DNA of 64,000 nt from an uncultured bacterium (GTDB taxonomy: Bacteria > Verrucomicrobiota > Verrucomicrobiia > Verrucomicrobiales > DEV007). The stretch covers positions 416,001 through 480,000 of the forward strand of contig CAXBMO010000001.1 in the NCBI GenBank assembly GCA_963977015.1. The letters run 5' to 3'. Below are positions 28,612 to 42,684 of this stretch, one piece after another (positions within the stretch are counted from its first letter, which is position 1; every line of letters begins with the position of its first letter). Made by a program: the position numbers and the translations under genes. The notes beneath the pieces are model-generated. The model was not told the DNA's origin. It saw only the letters and a program-made list of their open reading frames with translations, and did no database searches.

Positions 28612-29274
28612 ATGGCGTCCGAGATGACAACGGATGATTCGCCCGAAGTGGAGCGAGTCTACGCCCAGACGCGCCAAAGCCTGATTGAGCGACTCAAAGA
28701 TTGGGAAGACAAGCGCAGTTGGGACGAATTTTACCAAACCTACTGGCGATTGATTTACTCCGTTGCCGTGAAGGCGGGATTGCGTCCGGATGAAGCTTCC
28801 GAGGTGGTTCAGGAGACGATTCTAACGATCGCGAAACAACAGAATCGAGAGGAAAAAGGATACGATAAAGAGAAGGGGTCATTTAAAAACTGGCTTCTCG
28901 GAGTAACGCGCTGGCGCATCGCGGACCAGTTCCGAAAGCGGCAACGCCATCAAAAATTGGTGGTCACCTTGCCCGATGACGAAAATGAACCCGGATTTCT
29001 GGAACAATTTGCGGATCCCGTCGGACCCGAGGTGGAAAGGGTGTGGGACGCAGAGTGGAACCGAAACCTAACCCGGGCGGCTCTGCAACGGGTCAAGACC
29101 AAGGTGTCTCCCAAGCAGTATCAGATTTTTGATTGTTACGTGGTGAAAGAATGGGAGACCGAGAAAGTACAGGAACATCTCGAAGTCAGCCTGACTCAGG
29201 TTTATCTTGCCAAACATCGCGTTGGAAAACTGGTGAAACACGAAATTGAGACTCTCCAAACGACACTCCTCTAA
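28612..29274 (+). CDS. ECF RNA polymerase sigma factor
   Basis: TRQSLIERL, W..FY..YWRLIY, VVQE, GSFKNWL, and region 4 QVYLAKHRV. Confidence 0.92.
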   Translation: MASEMTTDDSPEVERVYAQTRQSLIERLKDWEDKRSWDEFYQTYWRLIYSVAVKAGLRPDEASEVVQETILTIAKQQNREEKGYDKEKGSFKNWLLGVTRWRIADQFRKRQRHQKLVVTLPDDENEPGFLEQFADPVGPEVERVWDAEWNRNLTRAALQRVKTKVSPKQYQIFDCYVVKEWETEKVQEHLEVSLTQVYLAKHRVGKLVKHEIETLQTTLL

Positions 29275-32116
29275 GACTCCGGAGATCCCCGAAATTCCGG
29301 ATTATGAGCTATTGCGCCCCATTGGACGGGGAGGCTATGGCGAGGTTTTTATTGCCAGAAGCGTCACGGGAACGATGCGGGCGGTAAAGATCGTTCGGCG
29401 CGATAATTTTGAGAGCGATAAAGCTTTCGAAAGGGAGTTTGAGGGAATCCAGCGCTACGAGCAGGTATCCCAGGAACACTCCGGTTTGGTCGATGTTCTC
29501 CACGTCGGTCGTGATGACGCCCAAGGCTTCTACTACTACGTGATGGAGTTGGCTGATGATGTGAACAATGGCCGTGATATTGACTATGAAAAATACGAGC
29601 CATCCACCCTTTCCCAGAAGCTGAAGCAGGGGAGAAAGGTTGGTTTGGTCGAAGCGCTGGAACTTGGCCAGAGTTTGGCCGAGGCGCTTGGGAAGCTCCA
29701 TTCCCATAAGTTGGCTCACCGCGACGTGAAGCCATCCAACATCATTTTCGTAAGGAATCGCCCTCGCTTGGCCGATCCCGGACTGGTTGCGGCAAGTGGG
29801 CAGGACACCTATGTCGGAACGGAAGGGTATGTCCCGCCTGAAGGCCCCGGAACTGCTCAGGCGGATCTTTACAGCCTCGGAATGGTGCTCTACGAGATGA
29901 ACACCGGCAGGGATCGAATGGATTTTCCGGAACTGCCAACGGTGATCGACCCCAACGAGGAACACCTCAAAGAGCGGCGTGAACTGAACACGGTAATTTG
30001 CAGGACTTGTGCCCCGCGCCCGAAACAACGTTACCCGGATGCGCGTGCGTTGGAAGAAGCTCTGGATACGGTTGGAAAAGACCGAAAATTGCCCACATTC
30101 TTTTTCCCTTGGCGGGCAGTCGGAGTTGCCGCTTTGGTCACCGTTTTTGCGGCTGGAGTTGGTGCTGCGATGATGTTTGGAAATTTCCTAGTGCCAGCGG
30201 GCAAAGAGCTTTTTGCATCCGTGAAAAGTCCGCTGAAGACTCAAGAAGAAGCATTATCTCCCGTCATTAGTGAGCCGCCGCCGGAAGCGAAGCCTCTTGC
30301 CAACACCGTTACCGAACCTCCGGCAAAACTGACCGTCGACGAACCGCCCACGGAAGATGGGGAGGCTGAAAACAATGGCCGGACCGAAGTGGTGTCGATT
30401 GAGAAAACACCGATTTCCGTTGGGGAAACCCCGGCTGTTTCAACAGAAAAGTCGGAACTCCCGCCCAAGAAAATCGAACAGGAAGTTGCGGTGGAGAAGG
30501 TGAAAGAGCCAGAGGTAAAACCGGATCCGGAGGCGAATGTCATCGTGATGGCCGAGACCGAACCCGCGTCTCGCAAACCAGTGCGTGAGGGGGTGTTATT
30601 GGTGACCAGCAATCCACCCAGCGCGATCGTTTTCATCAATGGAGAGGAACAAGGAGCGACTCCGGTTCGCCTGACTTTGCCCGCCGCTGATTATCGAATT
30701 CGGTTGGATTTGGAGAACCACAAGGAAGCCAAGTTTTTGGCTCGTGTTGAAGCCGGTCAAACCGAGCCGGTTGATGCCGACTTGATTTACTGGAACCCTC
30801 CCAAACCCGGAGAAGTCTGGGCCAACAGCCTCGGGATGCGATTGGTTCCCGCCAGCCAGGAAAATGGGCACCGGACTCGGGGGCCTGTAAAAATGGCGGA
30901 TTTCAGCCGGTTCGTCAAAGAAGCCGGAATCAAAGGCGATCAGTTTAAAGTCGGAAATGAGCAACTCGTTTTTGCGACTCCGGGAACTCGCCAGAGCTTT
31001 TGCAATTGGCTCACTGAAAAGGATCGAGAGAAGGGGTATTTGGACGAAAATCTGAGATACATGGTGGAGATTTTCGATCCTCTTGATGGGTCTGCGGATC
31101 TGGCGTCGTTTGTTGCATTTGTCGGCAAACCCAGGTTTGGGAACGTGGTCATTGAGAGCGAGCCTGAAGGAGCTGAAGTCTATTTTGAGGGCAAAAAGAT
31201 CGGCGCTACGCCTGTTCGTATACCCAAGCAGGAAGTTGGACCTATCGAGGTTGAGATTCGAAAAGACGGTCACAAAGGGGCTACGGTTCGCGGCTTGGTC
31301 AGTCACACGGAATCTCTGAAGTTACGGGCGATTCTTACGCGAAATGCGGGAGTCGAATTTGGGCAGAAATGGACGAATACGTTGGGAATGCCATTCGTGC
31401 CCGTTGGCGATCTCCTGTGTGCGGTCTACGAAACGCGGCGGAGTGATTACGAGGAGTTTTGGAAGACGGAAGGCACGGAAGACCGGTATTTTGACGTCTC
31501 CTACACTCCGCAGGGGCCGGATCATCCCGTGATCAATATTGAGATCGCCAAAGCACGGAAATTCTGTGAGTGGTTGACTGCCGCTGAGAGAGAGTTGGAA
31601 CTCATCCAACCCGATCATGTTTACCGGTTACCCACCGATGAAGAGTGGAGCCGCATGGCTGGTTTGGAGGGGGAACGGGGAAGGACCCCCGAAGCACGAG
31701 ATGGGATGATCAAAGACGTCTATCCGTGGGGAACTGCTTGGCCGCCGAAGCCTAATGCGGGGAACTTCAAAGACATGACGGTGCGACGCCTTTCCAAATC
31801 GCCTCAGCGTTGGATCGTCGAAGGCTACGAAGACGGGTTTTTGAAAACCGCTCCGGTGGGGCAGTTTGACGCCAATCAATTTGGACTTCACGACATCGCC
31901 GGGAACGTTTGGGAGTACGTGAATGACAACTACGCCGGAAGTCGGCCTACCAAGTATTCAACGGTAATGAGAGGTGGAAGTTGGGCTGACTACACGAAGG
32001 AGAATTTGATGACGGCAACCCGGGTGCCAACGACGAAAGAGCGAAAGAGCGATCAATGTGGATTCCGAGTCGTTCTGGCAAAGGCGACTTCCATCATGGT
32101 TCAGGATGACGAGTAG
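29246..32116 (+). CDS. Membrane Ser/Thr kinase with PEGA domains and C-terminal FGE-sulfatase (SUMF1)-like domain
   Basis: GRGGYGEV, AVK, HRDVKPSN, GTEGYVPPE; TM helix; two PEGA-like repeats; RLPT..EW, GNVWE, RGGSW, GFR. TTG start is uncertain. Confidence 0.9.
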   Translation: MRLSKRHSSKTPEIPEIPDYELLRPIGRGGYGEVFIARSVTGTMRAVKIVRRDNFESDKAFEREFEGIQRYEQVSQEHSGLVDVLHVGRDDAQGFYYYVMELADDVNNGRDIDYEKYEPSTLSQKLKQGRKVGLVEALELGQSLAEALGKLHSHKLAHRDVKPSNIIFVRNRPRLADPGLVAASGQDTYVGTEGYVPPEGPGTAQADLYSLGMVLYEMNTGRDRMDFPELPTVIDPNEEHLKERRELNTVICRTCAPRPKQRYPDARALEEALDTVGKDRKLPTFFFPWRAVGVAALVTVFAAGVGAAMMFGNFLVPAGKELFASVKSPLKTQEEALSPVISEPPPEAKPLANTVTEPPAKLTVDEPPTEDGEAENNGRTEVVSIEKTPISVGETPAVSTEKSELPPKKIEQEVAVEKVKEPEVKPDPEANVIVMAETEPASRKPVREGVLLVTSNPPSAIVFINGEEQGATPVRLTLPAADYRIRLDLENHKEAKFLARVEAGQTEPVDADLIYWNPPKPGEVWANSLGMRLVPASQENGHRTRGPVKMADFSRFVKEAGIKGDQFKVGNEQLVFATPGTRQSFCNWLTEKDREKGYLDENLRYMVEIFDPLDGSADLASFVAFVGKPRFGNVVIESEPEGAEVYFEGKKIGATPVRIPKQEVGPIEVEIRKDGHKGATVRGLVSHTESLKLRAILTRNAGVEFGQKWTNTLGMPFVPVGDLLCAVYETRRSDYEEFWKTEGTEDRYFDVSYTPQGPDHPVINIEIAKARKFCEWLTAAERELELIQPDHVYRLPTDEEWSRMAGLEGERGRTPEARDGMIKDVYPWGTAWPPKPNAGNFKDMTVRRLSKSPQRWIVEGYEDGFLKTAPVGQFDANQFGLHDIAGNVWEYVNDNYAGSRPTKYSTVMRGGSWADYTKENLMTATRVPTTKERKSDQCGFRVVLAKATSIMVQDDE

Positions 32117-32121
32117 TCCGG

Positions 32122-33249
32122 TTAATCTGCGATTTTGCGGATGACCCGGATTTTGTGGGCTTCGCTGTCGCCAACATAGATGTCTCCGTTCTTTGGATCG
32201 ACAAACACTCCGTGGGGGCGAGCCATCTCACACTTCAGCGGATCTCCATCTGCTCCATCGCCGCGCTTACCGGTTCCTGCGACCAAGCGCAGAACTGGTG
32301 GAGTCGAGCCGAGGTCAATCATGCGAATGGAGTGGCTCTCCGTGTCGGCTAGATAGATATTTCCCTGGGGGCCAACACTGATACCTTTTGGGCCCGAAAG
32401 GGTTGCGTCTTTTGCCGGACCACCGTGGCCGGTGAATCCCTTTTTTCCGGTTCCTGCAACGTGGTGAATTTTGCCGGCCCGCATGTCGAAGCGAACCACC
32501 TTGTTGCCTTCCCGCAGGGCGAGCCACAAATTTCCATCCGAATCAAAGTCAAGAGCTCGAGGGCCATTCAGTGCCGTTGATGGATCCTCGATCGCGTCTC
32601 CGTCAGCGGGGCCGTTCCGATTCCCGTTTCCTGAGAACGTGCTGACTTTTTGACTAACCAGATCAATAACTCTGACCCGATGGTTCTGAATGTCGCAGAC
32701 GAAGAGTTGCTTGAAATCCGGGCCGAACTGGATGCTGTGTGGGCGATTAAACGTTGCTTGATCTCCGGGCGTCGGATCATCGCTGTTGAAACCGGCTTTT
32801 CCGGTTCCCGCGAGAGTTGAAATGATCCCGCTTTCTGAATCCACCTGTCGAACGAGGTTATTCTTCATTTCGACAAAGAAGAGATCCCCTCGGTCATTGA
32901 AGCGCAGCTCGTAAGGTTCGAACAGTTTTGCGTCAAGCGCGGTCGCCCCGTCTCCCCAATAACCACTTTGTCCACCGGTTCCGGCAACTGTCGAAATGGT
33001 TCCCGTTTGGCGATCGATTTTTCGAATCGCGTGGTTTCCGGTGTCGCAGAAGTAGACATTGTCATCCGGCCCAACGATGACGCCAAAGGGGTTGTTGATC
33101 TGAGCTTCAGTCGCGGAGCCACCATCACCGGAAAATCCAGCCTTCCCCGTTCCGGCGATCGTAATGATCTCGTACTGATCGGCGATTAAGAGGGTGGGGA
33201 TCAGGCAAAGCGCAAGAATCCAGGTTGCTGAATATTGGGCGGGTTTCAT
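32122..33249 (-). CDS. Secreted NHL-repeat beta-propeller protein
   Basis: Repeated TIAGTGKAGFSGDGG..A.(I/L/F)..P motifs; signal peptide from MKPAQ. Confidence 0.88.
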   Translation of the reverse strand: MKPAQYSATWILALCLIPTLLIADQYEIITIAGTGKAGFSGDGGSATEAQINNPFGVIVGPDDNVYFCDTGNHAIRKIDRQTGTISTVAGTGGQSGYWGDGATALDAKLFEPYELRFNDRGDLFFVEMKNNLVRQVDSESGIISTLAGTGKAGFNSDDPTPGDQATFNRPHSIQFGPDFKQLFVCDIQNHRVRVIDLVSQKVSTFSGNGNRNGPADGDAIEDPSTALNGPRALDFDSDGNLWLALREGNKVVRFDMRAGKIHHVAGTGKKGFTGHGGPAKDATLSGPKGISVGPQGNIYLADTESHSIRMIDLGSTPPVLRLVAGTGKRGDGADGDPLKCEMARPHGVFVDPKNGDIYVGDSEAHKIRVIRKIAD

Positions 33250-33268
33250 AAGGGGAATTTTTGGGGAA

Positions 33269-33622
33269 TCAAAGCTGGTTTTCACTGGGCTTCTCGCAAG
33301 CTCGGCAGCCAAACGTGGGCTCCTCGCCGAATTTGCGCCTTCGATTGTAGCGATCAAAGGAGGCCGGAGTTGCCGCGAGAGTTTGAGGAGTGGGCGGGCT
33401 GGGAATCGTGGAATTGGTTTCGTTCGCTGTAGTCGACTTGGTGGCCTGAGAAGCTTTAAGGTCGATGTTTTCGCGCTCCAGTTCATCAATTTGCCCTTTC
33501 CATGGACCCCATTGGCCGTGAGCCTGCCAAATGCCGAGGCAGCAGAACACAAATGCCCAAATCCAGAGCAATGGTGAATTCTGAATGAGAAAGAAGAAAT
33601 TGGAAGCGAACGCAATCATCAA
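33269..33622 (-). CDS. Small single-TM protein with coiled-coil segment and low-complexity tail
   Basis: TM LLWIWAFVFCCLGIW followed by QIDELERENIDLK; operon spacing. Confidence 0.65.
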   Translation of the reverse strand: MMIAFASNFFFLIQNSPLLWIWAFVFCCLGIWQAHGQWGPWKGQIDELERENIDLKASQATKSTTANETNSTIPSPPTPQTLAATPASFDRYNRRRKFGEEPTFGCRACEKPSENQL

Positions 33623-33636
33623 TGAAAAGGGCCAGA

Positions 33637-33822
33637 CTAATTGAGCGTTGCCTGCCGAAGTTCCTCATTCTCCTTCGCCAATTTTAAGCCGCGATCCGCA
33701 TAACGTTTCCACATGAGCTTACCAATTGTCCGTCCGAGAAAATAGAAGAGGAGACAGACGACGACAACTACGATGCCGTATTGAATCCAAAAAGGGAGTG
33801 AGGGATCGACTTCAGGCTTCAT
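33637..33822 (-). CDS. 61-aa single-TM protein with coiled-coil tail
   Basis: ATGA overlap with the upstream gene; TM GIVVVVVCLLFYFLG; LAKENEELRQ. Confidence 0.7.
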   Translation of the reverse strand: MKPEVDPSLPFWIQYGIVVVVVCLLFYFLGRTIGKLMWKRYADRGLKLAKENEELRQATLN

Positions 33823-36800
33823 TTCTTTTTCGCGACAGTGATTTCGACTCGTCTACCTTCGTGATTGCCTTCGCCATCTCCCGCTCCCACCGCTTCCAGA
33901 CTGTGGGCATCGAGTCCCAGATCGATGAGAATGTCCCGAACTTCATAGGCGCGCAATTCGCTGACGCTGGTATTTGATTGAGGATCATCCGAAGAATTGG
34001 CGAATCCCTTGATGAGGATGCGATGGGCTTCCTTGTCTTCGAGAGCTCGCGTTGCCACGCTTTCAATCTGGACCTTTGCTTCCGGGCTCACCCAGGTGCT
34101 GCCGCTGCGAAATGGGATCGATTCTGAAAATGCAATCGTGACGTCTTCTTCAACACGCAGGTGATCCCGAACTTCAAAACCATCGGGCAAGGTGGCGGTG
34201 AGCGTTGCCAACAGGACTTCCTTCGTTGTCGAATTCCTGGTTTTTCCGAATAGCAGCACGGTCTTGCCTGTGACCTCGAGTCTGGCTTCGGACGCCTTTT
34301 GGGTGAAGACCGGGAGGAATTTCCCAATCGCGGGTGGCCATTTGATTTTCGGCAGGTTCTCAAGAATGAGCAAGTTGTCCTTTGCTTTCCCGGACTGATG
34401 AGCGCCCTTGAGAATCGCGTCCCGCGACCATGTGTCTGGCAACGCGCCTGAAAGTTGAACCACATTATCTGCGAGGATCACCACCAAGGCTGCGGAAGCG
34501 ATACCGTCGGTTGTGGTGGTCGCCATCGGTTTGACGACGATGGGCTTTGCCACAATTGGCTTTGGCATTTGCAGCTCAGATTCTTCCATGTCAGGATTCG
34601 GAGTCATGGGGACAGTGGATGCTGACGCTTGCACCTTGATTTGATCGATGAGTTTTGCGTCCTTCGGAAGTAAGGCCTTGGCCTGATTCAGAAAATCAGC
34701 CTTAATCTGTTCGCTGGGAACTTCACGGCGGAGGATGAGCATGTTAGGAGTCAGCTCGACATTGGCGGCTTCCGTTTCCTCGAAGAAGCTGGCGATAAAG
34801 GGCGCTGCGTTCTTTTCCCATCCGGCGACCTCCAATTCCGTGTCCACAGCAATCTCGCTTGTGACTTCAAAATCGCCCAATGTTGCGACAGCGGATTCGA
34901 TTGCATTGCTGATATCCTCGCTTGGAACAAGCCCCTCAAGTTGAATGGTGCCTTCTGCGAGCAGAATCTTGAGTTTGGCGATTTTCGGAATCACGACCGT
35001 GATTTCGTCTCCAAGTTTTCCATCCTTTGGAAGAATGGATTTGGCGTTGGCCAGAATGATTTCTTTGTCTTCAGGAGACGATACCTCCCGCCGGATCGTT
35101 ATTCCCTCCTCATCAATCGTCAGTTCCGCGTCCTTGGTTTTTTGAAATGCCGCAACGATCAAGCCTTCGAGTTCGTCCACCCAGGCCGGAGGTATGATTC
35201 GACTGCTGGTTCGGAGTGAAATATCGATGTTCTCCGGTTTGATGTCGAGCTTGGAGGCGGTGTTGGCGATCTTCGTTTTGATCGAATCATCAGGAATCCA
35301 TCCCTTGAAGCGGATGCTGTCCCCGTCCCGTAGCACCTGCAGGCTAGCTGGCTTGTCTGGTGGAAGGACAATTTGGTTGGTGAGTCCAGCGCCTTCGGGA
35401 AGCATGAGATTGGCGCGAGCCAACAATTGGCCCCGGATGGTGTTGTCAGGCACCTGGCGCTTCAGTCGCAACCCTTTGCCGTTGATTTCAAGCTCGGCGT
35501 TTTTCGCGTCCTTGAAAAAATCCGTAAGAAAGCCCGGCAAACTCTTTTCCCATCGGGGCGGAGCAACCTCCGAACTCACTTGAATGGTGCTGGAGACTTC
35601 ACCTCCCGCTGATTTCGCAGCAGCTTCCAGTTTCGCCTTGAGTGACTCCGTGGGGACGGTTCCCACGAGTCGGAATTTCCCGTCCTGCAAGACTGCGGTG
35701 AGGATCGATGGCTGGTCAGGCGCCAACTTCATCTTGTCGATCAACTTCCCCGTTTTTGACAAGAAAGAAGATCCTTCGAGCGCAAATTGACCTTTTTGTT
35801 CCGAGCTCAGACCTTCTCGAACCAATTCGAGATTCCCATTCTGGAGATTCAGGCCGGCTTGCTGGGTGTCTTCGAAAAACGAGGTCAGAAAACCTGGGAC
35901 CTGGGCCATCCAAGGCGGTGAAACGATCATGGGGTCGACTCCCATATCTGCGGTAAGGACGGGAAGAGGTTCGATTTCTGAAACCGCCTTCAAGAGCATT
36001 TCCTTGGTCGTTTGGTCATGAACCTGGCCCTTGAAGATGAGCTTGCCATTCGTGAGCGTTGCCTGAAGCGATACCGGTTGGTCGGGTTGAATCGTGAGCT
36101 GATTTTTAATTTTGGCGGTTGGCCAAAACTGGTTTGCGGCGGAGAGAAGGGTTGCGTTTCCGGTCTTGCCAATGACCGAGCGTTTCAGGCGCAGATCATC
36201 AGGGCTCAATTCAATTTCCGCAGAGTCGACATTCGCGATCGCGGTTGCCAGGAAGCCGGGGACTGAATTCGACCAGGGCGGAGAAATAACGCGATTGTTG
36301 ACCTGCAGATCATTCGCGAGCACTTCGTCGATAGTGGACTCGCTCACCAGCCCAAGCAGTTGTTCTTTCAGCCCGGGATCATCGATTTGGCCTGAAATCG
36401 TCAACTTTCGATTCTCCAACTTCACCAGAAGCTGAGCCGGGCGATCAGGCTGCAAGGTAATTTGGTTGTCGAGCTTCAGGGTTGGAAAGCGGGCTTTGGC
36501 GGCCGATACGAGAGCATCTCTGGCCGCTTCGCCCTTGATTTCCCGGCTGAGAAGCAGGTTACCTTCGCGAATGCTGATCGCACCGGACTTGGCGCCTTCA
36601 AAAAACTTTTCGATAAAGGGGAACGCATCATCATTCCAGGCTTGTGGAATCACTCGTGCATTCCGTTCCACCTCATTCTGAAGTCGGGGACTGCTTTCGA
36701 TCACCAGTTCATCTGATTTCGGCAATGGCAGCTGGCCCTCAATGGTCAGGACGCCTTCGGCGAGCGTGGCAAAGATCATCGCCGGCCGATCCGGGACAAA

Positions 36801-37781
36801 CGCAACCTGGTCAACGATGTCGGAGGTCACCTGTTTGGCGCTGAGAAGCAGATGCTCCTTGGCGTCATCGCCTTTGATTTTGCCGATCAGCGTGAGTTTT
36901 GCGTCGGCCAATTCAAAGCTTGAAACTCCTGAACTCGTGAAAACCGGCAAGAACGCGGCTAGCTTCGAATTCCACGTCGGAGTGATGACCCGATTGCTGA
37001 TATTCAGATTCTCAAAATCAGGGGCGTATCCAGTCTTCTCAAATTGTTGGGCAATTTCATTTTTCAGAGATTCGTTGGGTAGCCATCCGCCAACCTTTGC
37101 CGTGTTTCCGTCAAGGGAAACCATCAGCTGGGCCGGAAGATCAGGAAGAACCTCGAGGTTCTCGGTAAAAATGGCTCCGGGCTGCAGCAGTCTGGCTTGT
37201 TGGATGAATGCCGTTTTGGCGGCTTCTCCGCGAATCCCGCCTTCGGCGACTACTCCCGCAGCTGTGATTTCGAGAAAAAGGCTCGATGCGTTTTCCAAAA
37301 GACTGGGAAGGCTGACGACGAGTTCCTCCTGCCAATCGGCAAATTTGACCCGATCACTGACAAAAAGGTCCGATGAAAAGTGGCCAACGCTACTTGCCGC
37401 CTCAACCAGTGCGTTACGAATCTCTTCGGAAGGAAGCCTGCCTCTTAAGGAGACTTCGCCCTTCTCAAAGTTTACCAACAGCGTTGATTCTTGGTCGCGT
37501 TTGAGAACTTGGATCTCGTTGACGATCCGGCCTGCCAACCGATTTCGGCGCGCGGTCTTCTCTGCATCGGCCTTTGCCTCTTCACTCGGCGCCGTTCCGC
37601 TCAAGGTTCCCTTCAGATAATCAAACTGAACCTCAACATGGCCGAACCGTTCATCCTCGGTCAAGGCAATGGCAACGGACCTCGAAAGCCGTGTTTCCAT
37701 TTGATCGAGGTGCGGACGGCTCGAAACCAACGTCGTGGCAACGGCCGCAATGAGCGCCAAGATTACGATGAGGATTCTCAT
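33819..37781 (-). CDS. Giant BON-like repeat protein with C-terminal OmpA_C domain (ArfA/Rv0899-like)
   Basis: N-terminal anchor, one BON domain, nine ~115-aa repeats, then IPFRSGS...SELRA..V...L...RRVEI. Confidence 0.82.
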   Translation of the reverse strand: MRILIVILALIAAVATTLVSSRPHLDQMETRLSRSVAIALTEDERFGHVEVQFDYLKGTLSGTAPSEEAKADAEKTARRNRLAGRIVNEIQVLKRDQESTLLVNFEKGEVSLRGRLPSEEIRNALVEAASSVGHFSSDLFVSDRVKFADWQEELVVSLPSLLENASSLFLEITAAGVVAEGGIRGEAAKTAFIQQARLLQPGAIFTENLEVLPDLPAQLMVSLDGNTAKVGGWLPNESLKNEIAQQFEKTGYAPDFENLNISNRVITPTWNSKLAAFLPVFTSSGVSSFELADAKLTLIGKIKGDDAKEHLLLSAKQVTSDIVDQVAFVPDRPAMIFATLAEGVLTIEGQLPLPKSDELVIESSPRLQNEVERNARVIPQAWNDDAFPFIEKFFEGAKSGAISIREGNLLLSREIKGEAARDALVSAAKARFPTLKLDNQITLQPDRPAQLLVKLENRKLTISGQIDDPGLKEQLLGLVSESTIDEVLANDLQVNNRVISPPWSNSVPGFLATAIANVDSAEIELSPDDLRLKRSVIGKTGNATLLSAANQFWPTAKIKNQLTIQPDQPVSLQATLTNGKLIFKGQVHDQTTKEMLLKAVSEIEPLPVLTADMGVDPMIVSPPWMAQVPGFLTSFFEDTQQAGLNLQNGNLELVREGLSSEQKGQFALEGSSFLSKTGKLIDKMKLAPDQPSILTAVLQDGKFRLVGTVPTESLKAKLEAAAKSAGGEVSSTIQVSSEVAPPRWEKSLPGFLTDFFKDAKNAELEINGKGLRLKRQVPDNTIRGQLLARANLMLPEGAGLTNQIVLPPDKPASLQVLRDGDSIRFKGWIPDDSIKTKIANTASKLDIKPENIDISLRTSSRIIPPAWVDELEGLIVAAFQKTKDAELTIDEEGITIRREVSSPEDKEIILANAKSILPKDGKLGDEITVVIPKIAKLKILLAEGTIQLEGLVPSEDISNAIESAVATLGDFEVTSEIAVDTELEVAGWEKNAAPFIASFFEETEAANVELTPNMLILRREVPSEQIKADFLNQAKALLPKDAKLIDQIKVQASASTVPMTPNPDMEESELQMPKPIVAKPIVVKPMATTTTDGIASAALVVILADNVVQLSGALPDTWSRDAILKGAHQSGKAKDNLLILENLPKIKWPPAIGKFLPVFTQKASEARLEVTGKTVLLFGKTRNSTTKEVLLATLTATLPDGFEVRDHLRVEEDVTIAFSESIPFRSGSTWVSPEAKVQIESVATRALEDKEAHRILIKGFANSSDDPQSNTSVSELRAYEVRDILIDLGLDAHSLEAVGAGDGEGNHEGRRVEITVAKKK

Positions 37782-37875: not shown

Positions 37876-38667
37876 ATGACCAGAATTTCCCTGTTTTCGG
37901 ATCTTCATCTGGCCTCGAATCCTGAACAACGGGCACACGGCCAATGGCCGATCGGGAATCTGCACTCGGCAGTTGCGGCCGCCAAGGCATTTTCGCCCGA
38001 TCGAATGGTGATTGCAGGGGATTGTGCCTACAAAATGGGACTCCCTGAAAACTACGAGGGATTGGCGACGCTTTTGGACGATTTTCGGTCTTCCGGAGTC
38101 CAGGCGACGTGTTTGCCCGGAAACCATGATCATCGAGAAAATCTCCGCCAGGTTTTGGGGGACCCGAAGACGATGGTTGCCGGGTTGCTGACGGCAAAGG
38201 TGGAGGTTGAGCAATCAATTTGGCTTTTTCTTGATACGCAGCTGGGACTCCATGAAGTCAGGGGAGGTGTCGGTAAAAGGCAGCGTGCGTGGATTGAGCG
38301 GGAGCTGGATTTGGCTCCAGAAAAGCCCTTTATTGTTGTTGGCCACCATCATCCGGAAAATTCAGTTCGTTGCGATACCTTTCCCGGGATTGGTTTGCGG
38401 GACACCGGTCACTGGCTTCGGTTTCTCGATGCTCATTCGCAAATTAAGGCTTACGTTTTTGGGCATACTCACAGCTGGTTCCATGAGCAAACCTCAGGAG
38501 GGACTTGGCTTGTCAACTTACCCGCGGTGGGGTTTACGTTTCAGGAAGACCGGGCTTGTGGTTGGGCTCAGGCCGTTCAAAGCCCAACGGAACTCAACCT
38601 TGAATTCAGGAGCCTTGACGAAAAACACCCGGAGCACGGGGACAGGATTCGGATTGATCTCGATTAG
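37876..38667 (+). CDS. Metallophosphoesterase (CpdA/Icc-like)
   Basis: SDLH, GD, PGNHD, HHHP, GHTH. Confidence 0.9.
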   Translation: MTRISLFSDLHLASNPEQRAHGQWPIGNLHSAVAAAKAFSPDRMVIAGDCAYKMGLPENYEGLATLLDDFRSSGVQATCLPGNHDHRENLRQVLGDPKTMVAGLLTAKVEVEQSIWLFLDTQLGLHEVRGGVGKRQRAWIERELDLAPEKPFIVVGHHHPENSVRCDTFPGIGLRDTGHWLRFLDAHSQIKAYVFGHTHSWFHEQTSGGTWLVNLPAVGFTFQEDRACGWAQAVQSPTELNLEFRSLDEKHPEHGDRIRIDLD

Positions 38668-40319
38668 TAGCGATCCGGAGACGAAAAATCGATCTCGACG
38701 ATATTGTCGGAGAACGGTAACGCGATGGGATCCTCCTCATCTTCCTCCGCAGTGCGAAACTCGATAGCCCGGCATTCTTTCGCCACGGTTTCAACGATGA
38801 GCCCAAGAGTGTCGACGTCGAAGGGTTTGGAAAGATGATCGATGAATCCATAGTCCTGGTAGTTGGTCATCAAGTCATCCGTCGTATTGCCACTGATGAC
38901 GACGCAGGCGGCATCGGGGTCGATTTCCAAGAGCTTTCGGCAGGTCTCTCCCCCGCCCATTCCGCCTGGAATGTAAACGTCGAGAAAGGCTACATCAAAA
39001 CGATCACCATTCTCCATCGCATCGATGTAGGCTTCAATAGCCTCTTCTCCATCGGCACACGTCGTGACTCGGTGCCCCAATCCTTCCAGGCTGCGCTGAA
39101 GCACCAATCGAACCAGCTGTTGATCGTCGACGACCAAGACTTTCGCACCTTTCGTATCAAGAACACCACTTGTGACCGGGGTGAATGTTTCTTGTGGAAG
39201 GTCGACCGAAGCAGGCAAATGCATCTCGATTTTCAGTTTGTCCGCCTCAGCATCTGCAATGAGAATGCCGTGATTGCGTTTGATAACGCTTCGTGAAATG
39301 GCGAGGGAAAGGCCGGACGAAAACTGTGACGCTTGGGAGTAGGGCTCAAAGAACCGTTCTACCTCCCGGTTGGTGAGTTGCAGCGGAATCTCCATCGAAA
39401 AAGCGATGTAGTTGCCGTAGATGATCTCTCCTCCGAAAGCGGATTCAGGAGATTCCACCAATCGGTTCTCCGCATGAAATTGGATCTCTCCGGAGTGGCC
39501 TGTTGCATCGGCGGCGAAGGTTACCAATTGATGAATAACCTGGCCCAACTGAGCCGGATCAATGAAGGCAGCTTCCAGATCCTCGGCGAAATCGAACTCG
39601 CACTTGGTCCGGCTTCCACTGAGGGCAATCAGGCAGTTTTCGCGAACGACCTGCTGCAAATTGACCGCGCATGCCTCGGGTTGCTGGCTATTGGCGAATT
39701 CCAGTAGCTCTTTCGTCAGTTCCCTGGCACGAAGGCTTGCATTGTGGGCGGCTTCCAACAGGGCGGGTTGCAGTCGTCCTCTTCGGCCGCTTTCTTCCAT
39801 CGCGAGGTGAATGTTTCCAAGCACGCCGGTCAGGACATTGTTGAGATCATGAGCCAATCCCGAGGCGAATCGTTCCATCGATTCAAAGGCTGCGCTGCGT
39901 TGGCGAAAGACTTCGTTGTCCTCCTCCGGATTATTGGGCTGCGCGGTGAAAACCCGAAACACATGGCCATCGTCCTGCAGTTCCTGAATCTTGAGTTGAG
40001 GCGAGAAAAACGAGCCATTGCAGTGACGTGCTTCGACATTGATCAGCATGCACTCTGCGGAAAATGGCTGGCCGGTTTGGATGAACTCGAACTGTGGCGA
40101 AAAAAGCTCAGGGAGGTGAAGGCCATCCATTGCCGAATCGTCGTAGCCCCAGAGTCTGCAGGCGGCCTCGTTGGCAAAAGCGATCACATCGTCCTCATCA
40201 ACAGCAACCAAGGCTTCGCTTGAAACGTTGAGGAGCGAACGGAGGATTCGGGATGAGCGGTAGATATCCTTGCGGTGTTTTGTGCTGGAATCGACACGCT
40301 GATTGTTGCTGGATTTCAT
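38664..40319 (-). CDS. PAS hybrid histidine kinase/receiver protein with degenerate ATPase domain
   Basis: PAS domain, GLAHDLNN H-box, receiver VVDD..FLD..KPF. N and G boxes are eroded. Confidence 0.85.
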   Translation of the reverse strand: MKSSNNQRVDSSTKHRKDIYRSSRILRSLLNVSSEALVAVDEDDVIAFANEAACRLWGYDDSAMDGLHLPELFSPQFEFIQTGQPFSAECMLINVEARHCNGSFFSPQLKIQELQDDGHVFRVFTAQPNNPEEDNEVFRQRSAAFESMERFASGLAHDLNNVLTGVLGNIHLAMEESGRRGRLQPALLEAAHNASLRARELTKELLEFANSQQPEACAVNLQQVVRENCLIALSGSRTKCEFDFAEDLEAAFIDPAQLGQVIHQLVTFAADATGHSGEIQFHAENRLVESPESAFGGEIIYGNYIAFSMEIPLQLTNREVERFFEPYSQASQFSSGLSLAISRSVIKRNHGILIADAEADKLKIEMHLPASVDLPQETFTPVTSGVLDTKGAKVLVVDDQQLVRLVLQRSLEGLGHRVTTCADGEEAIEAYIDAMENGDRFDVAFLDVYIPGGMGGGETCRKLLEIDPDAACVVISGNTTDDLMTNYQDYGFIDHLSKPFDVDTLGLIVETVAKECRAIEFRTAEEDEEDPIALPFSDNIVEIDFSSPDRY

Positions 40320-40398: not shown

Positions 40399-41226
40399 TT
40401 AGCGAGTGATAAATGCGTCGCTATAGCGGCCAGTTTGATACTGGATGTATTTCAGCCAGCGAACGGCGTCGCTTTGCTCAAAGAATACACCGCTGGTCAT
40501 CAGACGAAGGGGATAACTTCCGGGCTCGTCTGAATGAACGATCATGGTGTCGATGTTCATTTGGCGCAGTTCTTCGCGAACGGTGCGAGCCTTGGATGCG
40601 TCAGAAAAAGCTCCAAATTGCACCCTCAGAAGTGGGCGGTTTGCACTGGATCCATCTTCGGCGGGGGCCAGTTCTTGAGTTGTGGTGGCTGCTTCCTTTT
40701 GCTGTTCCTGCCACACTGCTGAACCGGGTTTCGCCGATTTGCTGGTTACGGGAACCAGTTTCTTCAGAATCGTGTTGGCCGATGTACGGGCTGCGGTCTT
40801 GCGGGCGCTTTCCGGGAGTGGAACGTGCTTGGCCTGGGATTGAAGTTGAGGGGTAGCCGCCAATGGGGCAACGCTCACTTCCGCGATGCGGAGGTTGAGA
40901 ATTCCAAGGCGCTCAGCTGCTGCATAGGAAACGTCGATCGCGTGTCCGGAATTGAATGGGTTGCGGTCGTTCACGCGAACGACAACGGAATCATTGGTTT
41001 TGAGGTGCGTGACGCGAACCATGGATCCGAACGGCAATTCCGGATGAGCCGCAGTGAACAGTCGTCCGTCATAAATCTCTCCCGAGGCCGTTGTCCCGTG
41101 ATGATCGGTGCGATAGTAGGACGCGCGTCCATAGATTTCGTCAGCGTTGGCAGGAGTGATGGTGAAGAAGGAGGAAGCAATGAGGAAGAGTCCCTGTAAA
41201 GCTGTGCGGATGGCGTTGTGTTTCAT
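40399..41226 (-). CDS. rlpA: RlpA-family lytic transglycosylase with SPOR-like domain
   Basis: GRASYY, TASGE, TAAHPELPFGS, VRVNDR, IDVS; C-terminal VQFGAFS. Confidence 0.88.
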   Translation of the reverse strand: MKHNAIRTALQGLFLIASSFFTITPANADEIYGRASYYRTDHHGTTASGEIYDGRLFTAAHPELPFGSMVRVTHLKTNDSVVVRVNDRNPFNSGHAIDVSYAAAERLGILNLRIAEVSVAPLAATPQLQSQAKHVPLPESARKTAARTSANTILKKLVPVTSKSAKPGSAVWQEQQKEAATTTQELAPAEDGSSANRPLLRVQFGAFSDASKARTVREELRQMNIDTMIVHSDEPGSYPLRLMTSGVFFEQSDAVRWLKYIQYQTGRYSDAFITR

Positions 41227-41433
41227 GACCGAAGTAGAGTTAGGAGGGAAATATTGATATTATTGAAACCTAAAGTAAAACAAACCCAGCCATAAAAACA
41301 GTAAAAAATGATAATTTAGGCACTTTTGGCTCGAAAGCACTTTCAGTGCCTGTTCTCCTGTTTCACTCGAGGCTCCAAATTGGGATTGATTTCACAATTT
41401 GGAATTCGATTCTGCCGCGCCACGCTTCAATTC

Positions 41434-42684
41434 ATGAGAAAGAAATCCACAGTTTCCGTATCTGCCATTATCCTCCTGCTGGGAATTCCTTCCGCATTTG
41501 CTCAAGACTCATCCAGCTTATCGGCAGGTGATACCGCCTGGATGCTCACGGCCACGGCTCTTGTGCTTTTCATGACGATTCCCGGTCTTGCTCTTTACTA
41601 CGGTGGACAGGTGCAGCGCAAGAACGTCTTGAGCGTGTTGATGAATTGCTTCGCGCTGACGTGCGTGATGAGCGTTGTCTGGCTGATCGTCGGCTACAGT
41701 TTGTCGGTTGGTGAATCTGGCGGCGGATTTTTTGGCCGAGGCCATGTTTTTCACCAGGGTGTCGGGAGAGAGGATATCCTGGAATCGGCTTTCCGGATGA
41801 CCTTCTTCATCTTCACTCCGGCGCTGATTATCGGCACGTTTGTTGAGCGAATGAAGTTTTCGGCAATGCTCCTGTTTTCCGTGCTGTGGGGCCTCACCGT
41901 TTTTGCTCCCATTTGTCACATCACCTGGTTCGGCGGATGGTTTCAGAAGGCGGGGGTTGTGGATCTCGCGGGTGGAATTGTGGTCCATCTATCAGCCGGG
42001 GTGGCCGCGTTGATCGCCTGCATCATGGTTGGCAAGCGTCAGAATCCACAGCCGCCCCACAATCTGCCAATGACGATGATGGGGACGGCAATGCTTTGGG
42101 TGGGATGGTTTGGATTCAATGGCGGGAGTCAGGGCGGCGCAAGCGACGAAGCTTCGATGACGCTGTTTGTGACCCACATTTCGGCAGCAACGGCAGCGAT
42201 AGTCTGGGCTGCGATCGAGTGGTTCACGATCAAGAAACCGAGCGTTCTCGGCATCGCGACAGGCGCCATCGCCGGATTGGCTGCGATTACGCCCGCTTCC
42301 GGAGTTGCCGGGCCAATGGGAGCTTTGCTGATTGGTGCGGTTTCCGGAATCTCCTGCTGGTGGGCGTCGGTTCGTCTGAAAGCCGCTCTTGGTTACGATG
42401 ATTCACTCGATGTTGTCGGAGTGCACGGTGTCGGCGGATTGGTCGGAACGTTGATGGTCGCGGTGGTCGGTCTCGGATCCATGGGGGGCTTCGGCGACAA
42501 GGGATTTGCCGAGCAATTGGGACTTCAATTTATGGGGGCGGGATTTACGATCGTCTACACCGCATTCGTCACCATGATTATTCTCCTTGTGACCATGGTG
42601 GTGTGCGGCGGACTACGTGTCAGCGACAGCGAAGAGAAGAAGGGGCTTGATCAATCCTCCCATGGGGAATCGGCCTATGATTAG
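41434..42684 (+). CDS. amtB: Ammonium transporter
   Basis: GDTAWML, PGLALYYGG, D(L)AGGIVVH, WVGWFGFNGGS, DDSLDVVGVHG. Confidence 0.95.
   Translation: MRKKSTVSVSAIILLLGIPSAFAQDSSSLSAGDTAWMLTATALVLFMTIPGLALYYGGQVQRKNVLSVLMNCFALTCVMSVVWLIVGYSLSVGESGGGFFGRGHVFHQGVGREDILESAFRMTFFIFTPALIIGTFVERMKFSAMLLFSVLWGLTVFAPICHITWFGGWFQKAGVVDLAGGIVVHLSAGVAALIACIMVGKRQNPQPPHNLPMTMMGTAMLWVGWFGFNGGSQGGASDEASMTLFVTHISAATAAIVWAAIEWFTIKKPSVLGIATGAIAGLAAITPASGVAGPMGALLIGAVSGISCWWASVRLKAALGYDDSLDVVGVHGVGGLVGTLMVAVVGLGSMGGFGDKGFAEQLGLQFMGAGFTIVYTAFVTMIILLVTMVVCGGLRVSDSEEKKGLDQSSHGESAYD

Follow-up and report, generated by a model that had tools for sequence, protein, structure and literature searches.

An expanded ArfA-type BON/OmpA protein encoded with two paralogous small membrane proteins in an uncultured member of the Verrucomicrobiota

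Is the four-gene operon at positions 32122-37781 of the DNA shown above an enlarged version of the arf operon of Mycobacterium tuberculosis, or an envelope system of its own built around the same kind of protein? The operon lies in a stretch of 64,000 nucleotides (nt), called the window here, which comprises positions 416,001 to 480,000 of contig CAXBMO010000001.1 (assembly GCA_963977015.1) from an uncultured bacterium of the Verrucomicrobiales family DEV007. A preliminary description, made from the sequence alone, had called it arfABC-like. We find that the first gene, A, is an expanded variant of the ArfA-type BON/OmpA proteins, that the operon is a real, conserved unit and a lengthened form of a widespread but unstudied gene module, and that the second and third genes, B and C, are an undescribed paralogous pair and conserved partners of A. 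The genes, each identified as an open reading frame (ORF), are as follows.

33819-37781, minus strand: gene A, 1320 amino acids.
33637-33822, minus strand: gene B, 61 amino acids; its ATG overlaps the TGA of A as ATGA.
33269-33622, minus strand: gene C, 117 amino acids from a TTG start, or 116 from an ATG one codon later.
32122-33249, minus strand: gene D, 375 amino acids from an internal ATG within a 497-amino-acid ORF.

The tight linkage noted earlier is borne out in full by the ORF check: all four genes are on the minus strand, A and B overlap as ATGA, and the gaps are 14 nt between B and C and 19 nt between C and D. Protein A is divided into the following parts.

37716-37781, minus strand: residues 1-22, MR followed by 17 hydrophobic residues; a signal-anchor or signal peptide (read from the translation).
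37497-37667, minus strand: residues 39-95, a single BON domain (half-module; Pfam PF04972, best stretch 39-93).
34626-37481, minus strand: residues 101-1052, repeats 1-8, contiguous, with short PDxPA-type linkers (phmmer/hmmsearch self-search, alignment).
34488-34619, minus strand: residues 1055-1098, a Pro/Lys-rich linker (gap between repeat matches).
34143-34487, minus strand: residues 1099-1213, repeat 9 (self-search, alignment).
33822-34136, minus strand: residues 1216-1320, an OmpA_C domain (Pfam OmpA; PDB alignments to YfiB and YiaD).

In short, A consists of one BON domain, nine repeats of about 118 residues and a C-terminal OmpA_C domain. The BON domain scores 72.4 bits against PF04972 (gathering score 27) and the OmpA domain 38.1 bits (cut-off 27.2), with BON_like also matched. 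The hydrophobic stretch proper, residues 3-19, could be an anchor or a cleaved signal peptide, and all paralogues of A in the genome begin alike, with a hydrophobic N-terminus. When one repeat is used as the query, a single phmmer pass retrieves the eight others, seven of them at E values of 7e-07 to 4e-18; the ninth repeat (residues 1101-1199) has E = 0.26 in the single pass and 3.8e-14 after the first profile iteration. Pairwise identity among the nine is 18-33%, which argues that the array is old and has not been amplified recently.

The NCBIfam model ArfA_OmpATb_N (NF051434, 114 positions) identifies the family of these repeats: it matches A with 184 bits (E = 7.8e-55, cut-off 81). Note that this score is the sum of seven stretches and that single repeats reach at most 36 bits in a six-frame search. 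An AlphaFold2 model of repeat 4, calculated from an alignment of 58 family repeats, has a mean predicted local distance difference test score (pLDDT) of 90.8, and its order of strands and helices is that of two BON-like halves. In a Foldseek comparison of this model with 350,542 PDB chains, the top three matches, 2kgs, 2l26 and 2ksm, all contain the B domain of Rv0899 (ArfA), with template modelling (TM) scores of 0.76-0.77 and root mean square deviations of 3.2-3.9 Å. With the profile of the 58 repeats, profile positions 1-117 align to the Rv0899 chain 2l26 (E = 1.5e-25). Each repeat is thus confirmed, by profile and by fold, as an ArfA/Rv0899 B-domain module, and the last repeat together with OmpA_C has the B and C domain order of ArfA. 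The preliminary description had proposed such a relation, and would have given it up if the repeats were unrelated to the BON or ArfA-B folds or if the small genes did not co-occur with homologues of A; the repeats are related, and the small genes do co-occur, as described below.

The available text of two papers on ArfA/OmpATb (PMC6151718, PMC12183614) describes the same layout as in A: an N-terminal anchor, a B domain of two BON-like halves and a C-terminal OmpA_C. The difference is one of scale, since A contains nine B modules plus an extra BON in 1320 residues, whereas Rv0899 has one B module in 326 residues (PMC6151718, available text). The domain logic of A is also that of an architecture cluster 'BON + BON + OmpA' in the accessible part of a survey of BON proteins (PMC7806268, Table 1). 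However, that table gives no many-repeat form among its major architectures, the accessible part does not mention gene neighbours, and the row for this cluster, which is flattened in the version available, apparently has no entry for Verrucomicrobia. A literature search, from which subscription journals were largely excluded, turned up nothing published on multi-repeat forms or the partner genes.

The fold comparison also bears on a second reading of A, namely that it is chiefly a stress protein of the OsmY/DolP type, binding lipids or proteins in the periplasm, and would act as a membrane shield or chaperone rather than as a tether of defined length, with B and C aiding its insertion or stability. 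DolP, OsmY and BonA share the BON fold and the envelope location with A, and the repeat profile does match OsmY (E = 4.6e-05) and BonA (E = 0.0031). In addition, the accessible part of PMC7806268 ties the BON family to osmotic stress and outer-membrane integrity and reports that BON2 of DolP binds phospholipid. However, in these three proteins the two halves pack otherwise, with TM scores of at most 0.45 against the repeat-4 model, compared with 0.76 for the ArfA-B domain; they are lipoproteins or soluble proteins, and they are without OmpA_C, repeat array or B/C partners. Moreover, every paralogue of A keeps both the N-terminal hydrophobic anchor and the C-terminal wall-binding domain, and partners with long, presumably cytoplasmic tails are conserved across two phyla. 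We consider this reading rather unlikely.

The second component of the system is the pair B and C. The single transmembrane helix of B contains a G-x7-W motif; basic residues come next, and the protein ends in a short coiled-coil-like tail. C has a hydrophobic, conserved N-terminus with G-x7-W, a heptad stretch, a low-complexity region and the tail RRRKFG...FGCRxCE. In the alignments, G30 and W38 of B (17 homologues) and G29 and W37 of C are invariant. Since the profiles of B and C match each other and both alignments share an invariant Gly with a Trp eight residues later, the two are paralogues. Each has one hydrophobic helix, after which come basic residues and a heptad-like stretch. An ESM Atlas search with C yielded no named cluster, and its matches did not rise above the range prone to chance. 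A complex prediction for C (residues 1-65) with B, using our own alignments, scored 0.07 against a mark of 0.32, which is evidence neither way. The tail of C in the window (33269-33340, minus strand) reads RRRKFG...FGCRACE, and in a second species (L053:1-45) the corresponding parts read RRRRFG and FGCRGCE; the basic CxxC tail may be a metal- or partner-binding site.

A-type genes occur four times in the genome and encode 1, 3, 9 and about 10 repeats (387, 580, 1320 and 1449 amino acids); downstream of each, on the same strand, come a gene for a single-helix protein of 61-77 amino acids and, after it, one for another protein whose N-terminus is similar. For a wider comparison, we collected 43 A-type loci, which come from 27 genomes of the family and include the three paralogues of the window's genome; B-like and C-like genes lie directly downstream on the same strand at 19 of these loci, and a single one of the two at another 4. 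The expected co-occurrence of the small genes with homologues of A was therefore seen in 4 of 4 paralogues and, with both genes, at 19 of 43 family loci. Among ORFs called by a simple longest-ORF rule, matches to the B profile (35 of 39) and to the C profile (38 of 42) are concentrated on the same strand within 400 nt downstream of A; this positional specificity is the sole independent evidence for the partnership.

Are B and C then ArfB and ArfC? Judged at the sensitivity of HMMER, they are not members of either family: the best six-frame matches in the genome to ArfB_Rv0900 (NF051435, 50 positions) and ArfC_sunset (NF051433, 160 positions) have E values of 0.5 and 2.7, and each lies on another contig. 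This result matters for the reading in which the operon is a true functional equivalent of mycobacterial arfABC (ompATb), serving acid adaptation and ammonia release with amtB as a functional neighbour. According to the available text of a 2025 review (PMC12183614), bacteria in culture release ammonia and adapt to acid faster when they have the rv0899 operon. The homology of A to ArfA covers both the B and the C domain, and the rv0899-rv0900-rv0901 operon likewise has two membrane-protein genes after the anchor gene, in the order large anchor, small membrane protein, larger membrane protein (PMC12183614, available text). A gene for AmtB lies about 3.5 kb from the start of A, and is nearby too in the orthologous locus of the same genus. 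However, the two NCBIfam models match nothing at B or C in this genome, nor any of 54 B/C-like proteins. The amtB gene is on the opposite strand from A, behind three genes of mixed orientation, and amtB was found near an A-type gene at 1 of 64 loci; because that one is the same-genus orthologue, we read the proximity as synteny and not as function. The review, in its available text, also states that the roles of rv0900 and rv0901 are still elusive and that an operon mutant had no noticeable growth defect in mice (PMC12183614). Further differences are the added NHL gene and the host, a member of the Verrucomicrobiota that appears to be diderm. We regard functional equivalence as decidedly unlikely, and a link to ammonia is not supported. 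The term 'arfABC-like' consequently holds for gene A and the gene order only, because B and C match neither model. The earlier remark that the nearness of amtB may be coincidence is accurate as to the proximity, which is real, while a functional link did not emerge.

In the three other paralogous loci of the same genome and in many relatives, C is a long protein (320-2117 amino acids or more) that ends in 1-18 copies of a helix-hairpin-helix (HhH)-like domain of about 65 residues; the three paralogous loci have 3-5 copies. The same domain forms the C-terminal extension in the NCBIfam models of NuoE, L21, S2 and phasin PhaH. A search of the literature on DUF4332 gave nothing useful. The largest count is found in L021 (3649-10002, plus strand), where a C-like protein of at least 2117 amino acids has 18 copies and the ORF reaches the end of the fetched locus. 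In an alphaproteobacterial locus, L078 (3906-4961, plus strand), the part of the C-like protein that separates the transmembrane segment from the HhH-like domain gives a weak match of ArfA-B type (E = 0.0027).

An HhH-like gene lies downstream of A on the same strand at 17 of the 43 loci of the window's family and at 16 of 21 alphaproteobacterial loci, some of which have a tiny transmembrane gene (45-46 amino acids) between A and the HhH-like gene. At L029 and L047 the HhH-like match is on the same strand, upstream of A or overlapping it, and no HhH-like match on the opposite strand was found in the approximately 630 kb of loci. For example, a 21-repeat protein in a metagenome-assembled genome (MAG) labelled uncultured Rhizobiaceae is followed about 200 nt downstream by a protein with a transmembrane segment and two HhH-like domains. 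In the order of this MAG, 84 of 151 sampled genomes match the repeat profile at E <= 1e-05, in agreement with the range listed for the 'BON + BON + OmpA' cluster, mainly alpha- and beta-proteobacteria, Actinobacteria and Cyanobacteria (PMC7806268, accessible part). A Rhizobiaceae-labelled MAG also encodes a 2901-residue A-type protein (L058:8998-17703, plus strand) with five near-identical tandem units of about 389 residues, each of three repeats, which reflect either recent amplification or an assembly effect.

When searched against 1.84 billion representatives, the repeat profile matches 9124 clusters at E <= 0.001, 2367 at E <= 1e-10 and 349 at E <= 1e-30. Thirteen of the matches were scanned with Pfam: seven carry OmpA at the C-terminus together with a BON array (9 to 21 profile stretches each), four are giant BON-array secretins, one is fused to a Ser/Thr kinase and one has BON only. 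The secretins (P0027, P0045, P0052 and P0112) are 1427-2815 amino acids long, and the kinase fusion is P0041. Within the window's phylum, a broader profile, A2, matches 30 of 300 other sampled genomes, nearly all with a single repeat in frames of about 200-540 amino acids, so that the 1 of 300 obtained with the narrow profile A1 is an underestimate. The narrower profile matches 27 of 36 genomes in the window's own family and 0 of 24 from the other families of its order. Because the phylum matches are nearly all single-repeat, multi-repeat arrays typify the window's family within the phylum, in addition to the alphaproteobacteria. A protein homology search, which is insensitive, found four full-length relatives of A, and a comparison of the last repeat plus OmpA_C with shorter proteins gave two matches, neither usable.

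The giant secretins raise another reading, in which the BON array would oligomerize into a ring or channel that carries material across the envelope, like the N-domains of secretins, YscD of the type III secretion system or the pore proposed for OmpATb. Such secretins are among the best 150 matches of the repeat profile, and one paralogue of A has weak Pfam matches to the BON-like ring domains of YscD/CdsD. However, the C-terminal domain of A is OmpA_C instead of a barrel, the secretin domain PF00263 was not found in A by Pfam, and the block contains no secretin, ATPase, pilin or export gene. According to the available text of PMC12183614, Rv0899 itself forms no beta-barrel and is likely to be without porin activity. 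A ring or channel is highly improbable here.

From the observed domain composition, fold, conserved gene order and distribution, we infer a membrane topology, a contact among A, B and C, peptidoglycan binding and a role, as follows. As in ArfA, the N-terminal helix would anchor A in the cytoplasmic membrane. The chain would then run through the BON half-module and nine compact double-BON modules of ArfA-B type joined by Pro-containing linkers of 4-5 residues; a Pro-rich linker of 44 residues would precede the last module and OmpA_C, which would bind peptidoglycan non-covalently. The paralogous bitopic proteins B and C would most likely make up the membrane base, their tails pointing into the cytoplasm. 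The tail of C bears 1-18 HhH-like heads in most relatives, and on the strength of these heads we propose that the module connects the wall with some component of the cell interior; in the subtype seen in the window, a short basic CxxC tail takes the place of the heads and a gene for a putatively periplasmic NHL propeller has been added. The role may be envelope spacing, integrity or stress protection, possibly under the neighbouring hybrid kinase.

Since A has a membrane anchor, a wall-binding domain and ten modules between them, the design suggests a tether or spacer from the cytoplasmic membrane to peptidoglycan or beyond, and the complex may span the periplasm, as had been supposed earlier. 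MotB/PomB and the TolR-Pal-type anchors also combine a single N-terminal helix with a C-terminal OmpA-like domain for wall binding, but have a short linker in place of the 1000-residue module array of A. Unlike stators of the MotB/TolR type, A has no multi-pass MotA/TolQ/ExbB partner among the ORFs or Pfam matches of the block and its neighbours, and the same data for the block gave no secretin or transporter. When compared with the more widespread module of an OmpA_C wall anchor and a transmembrane-HhH protein, the window is similar in that the OmpA_C protein immediately adjoins a bitopic partner on the same strand; it differs in the headless C, the extra small gene B, the NHL gene and the length of A, which belongs to the longest B-domain array class of its family. 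Taken together, an inner-membrane-anchored, peptidoglycan-binding envelope tether or spacer complex of A, B and C is, in our judgement, probable by a small measure.

Several observations weigh against this tether complex. The first concerns the wall-binding domain. The motif of A reads GFANSSDD (residues about 1258-1277; 33950-34010, minus strand). Among the OmpA_C motifs, which we take to be LSxxRA and (T/A)D, the Arg of the former is kept in A in an alignment of 12 family members, but an Asn replaces the canonical Asp, which is present in 11 of 11 aligned relatives, including one that is 66% identical. The second concerns topology: the cytoplasmic placement of the B and C tails would follow from the positive-inside rule only, given the residues WKRYADR or SRRRL after the helix. 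At two loci (L028:2952-6332 and L043:2375-6205), the C-like protein consists of one transmembrane segment, an SMC-like coiled coil of about 950 residues and a C-terminal OmpA_C; the tail would thus lie outside the membrane, in conflict with the cytoplasmic reading. In both loci, this C-like gene is followed by a third B-like gene. The third concerns the partnership. B and C match no Pfam or NCBIfam family, and neither NF051435 nor NF051433 matches any of 37 B/C-like proteins of the family at E <= 0.05 or any of 17 alphaproteobacterial ones at E <= 1. Neither a B-like nor a C-like gene was found at 20 of the 43 family loci, several of which are cut by contig ends, and at L025, L029, L032 and L039 A is followed by an MFS-like ORF of 396-412 amino acids (N-termini read by eye, without a family search). 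The E values of the B and C profiles are inflated, because the profiles were iterated on the same small ORF set. Finally, no RNA runs are listed for the operon and no expression data were found.

ArfA-type BON/OmpA proteins are common, yet poorly understood. The present results indicate that the ArfA B module can chain into arrays about 1000 residues long, that genes for two small, mutually paralogous membrane proteins consistently accompany those for ArfA-type anchors, and that in the majority form of the module one partner would extend a widespread domain of unknown function into the cytoplasm. With 9124 cluster representatives and more than half of the sampled genomes of one order, this is a large, unstudied part of envelope biology. 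The graded series of paralogues is a natural experiment on whether module number sets envelope distance. Beyond the tether complex itself, one may speculate, although we hold it doubtful, that A-B-C belongs to an ancient cross-phylum module coupling wall to cytoplasm (an OmpA_C anchor with G-x7-W partners, usually HhH-headed), of which the mycobacterial arf operon would perhaps be the only studied, functionally misread relative; the anchors of the family, whose module numbers within a genome (1, 3, 9 and about 10) are retained from species to species, would then be molecular rulers that set or sense envelope distances.

Does gene D belong to the system? D has a signal-peptide-like N-terminus and an NHL beta-propeller (Pfam NHL 76.7 bits, TEN_NHL 88 bits). 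The A protein of a second species of the genus (G302) is 46% identical, and there too B overlaps the stop of A by 4 nt; C runs into a contig end, and another contig opens with a matching C end (FGCRGCE against FGCRACE in the window) followed by an NHL gene that is 74% identical. The order A-B on one side of the contig break and C end-NHL on the other indicates that the four-gene order is conserved in that species. In the third member of the genus (G303), the A locus is cut by a contig end. That D is instead a co-oriented neighbour by chance, outside the system, is quite possible, if somewhat short of probable. An NHL gene was not found at the 63 other A-type loci searched, the C-NHL arrangement being seen only in the window and G302, and a 42% paralogue of D lies elsewhere in the genome, not adjoining any A gene. 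On the other hand, the gap to C is 19 nt, a consensus scan (the only method used) gave no terminator-like site between C and D, and the order is the same in the second species despite the 46% identity of A. Note that promoter- and terminator-like sites in the consensus scan of the operon are at the level of shuffled sequences. We count D as a putative member of the system only.

On one side the block ends at a convergent kinase gene and on the other at a divergent phosphoesterase gene; its surroundings are as follows.

29246-32116, plus strand: Ser/Thr kinase gene, 956 amino acids, convergent with the operon; block boundary at 32116.
From 37876, divergent from A: phosphoesterase gene; the other block boundary.
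38664-40319, minus strand: hybrid sensor kinase, PAS-HisKA-HATPase-REC (Pfam), upstream of A.
40399-41226, minus strand: RlpA-like protein (DPBB and SPOR domains), between the hybrid kinase and amtB.
41326-42684, plus strand: amtB.

The neighbourhood of A in the window is shared with four-repeat A genes of two other genera (L019 and L020). In particular, tblastn places a hybrid PAS-HisKA-REC kinase next to A in L012, L019 and L020, that is, in three genera; at L019, where both are on one strand, 45 nt separate the end of the kinase gene from A, and the phosphoesterase neighbour also occurs at L020. By this association, the hybrid kinase is a possible regulator of the operon. Throughout the synteny group of the window, L019 and L020, C is short (116-176 amino acids) and without the HhH-like domain, which was not found in the C proteins of the window, L019 and L020 or in the cut C of L012. 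Nine modules, as opposed to four, are also present in G302 and at least in the 66%-identical relative P0002. Judging from these comparisons, the window represents a derived form, in which the array has grown from four to nine modules, C ends in the basic CxxC tail and, in this genus only, the NHL gene has been added.

A few minor observations concern the surroundings of the operon. Six public DNA runs from three studies contain part of it, five of them labelled marine metagenome. The gene order around the RlpA-like gene is repeated in the orthologous locus L012. The convergent kinase of 956 amino acids is a Ser/Thr kinase fused to one transmembrane segment, two PEGA domains and an FGE-sulfatase-like domain, and a sequence similar to its FGE part adjoins the A-type gene in L035.

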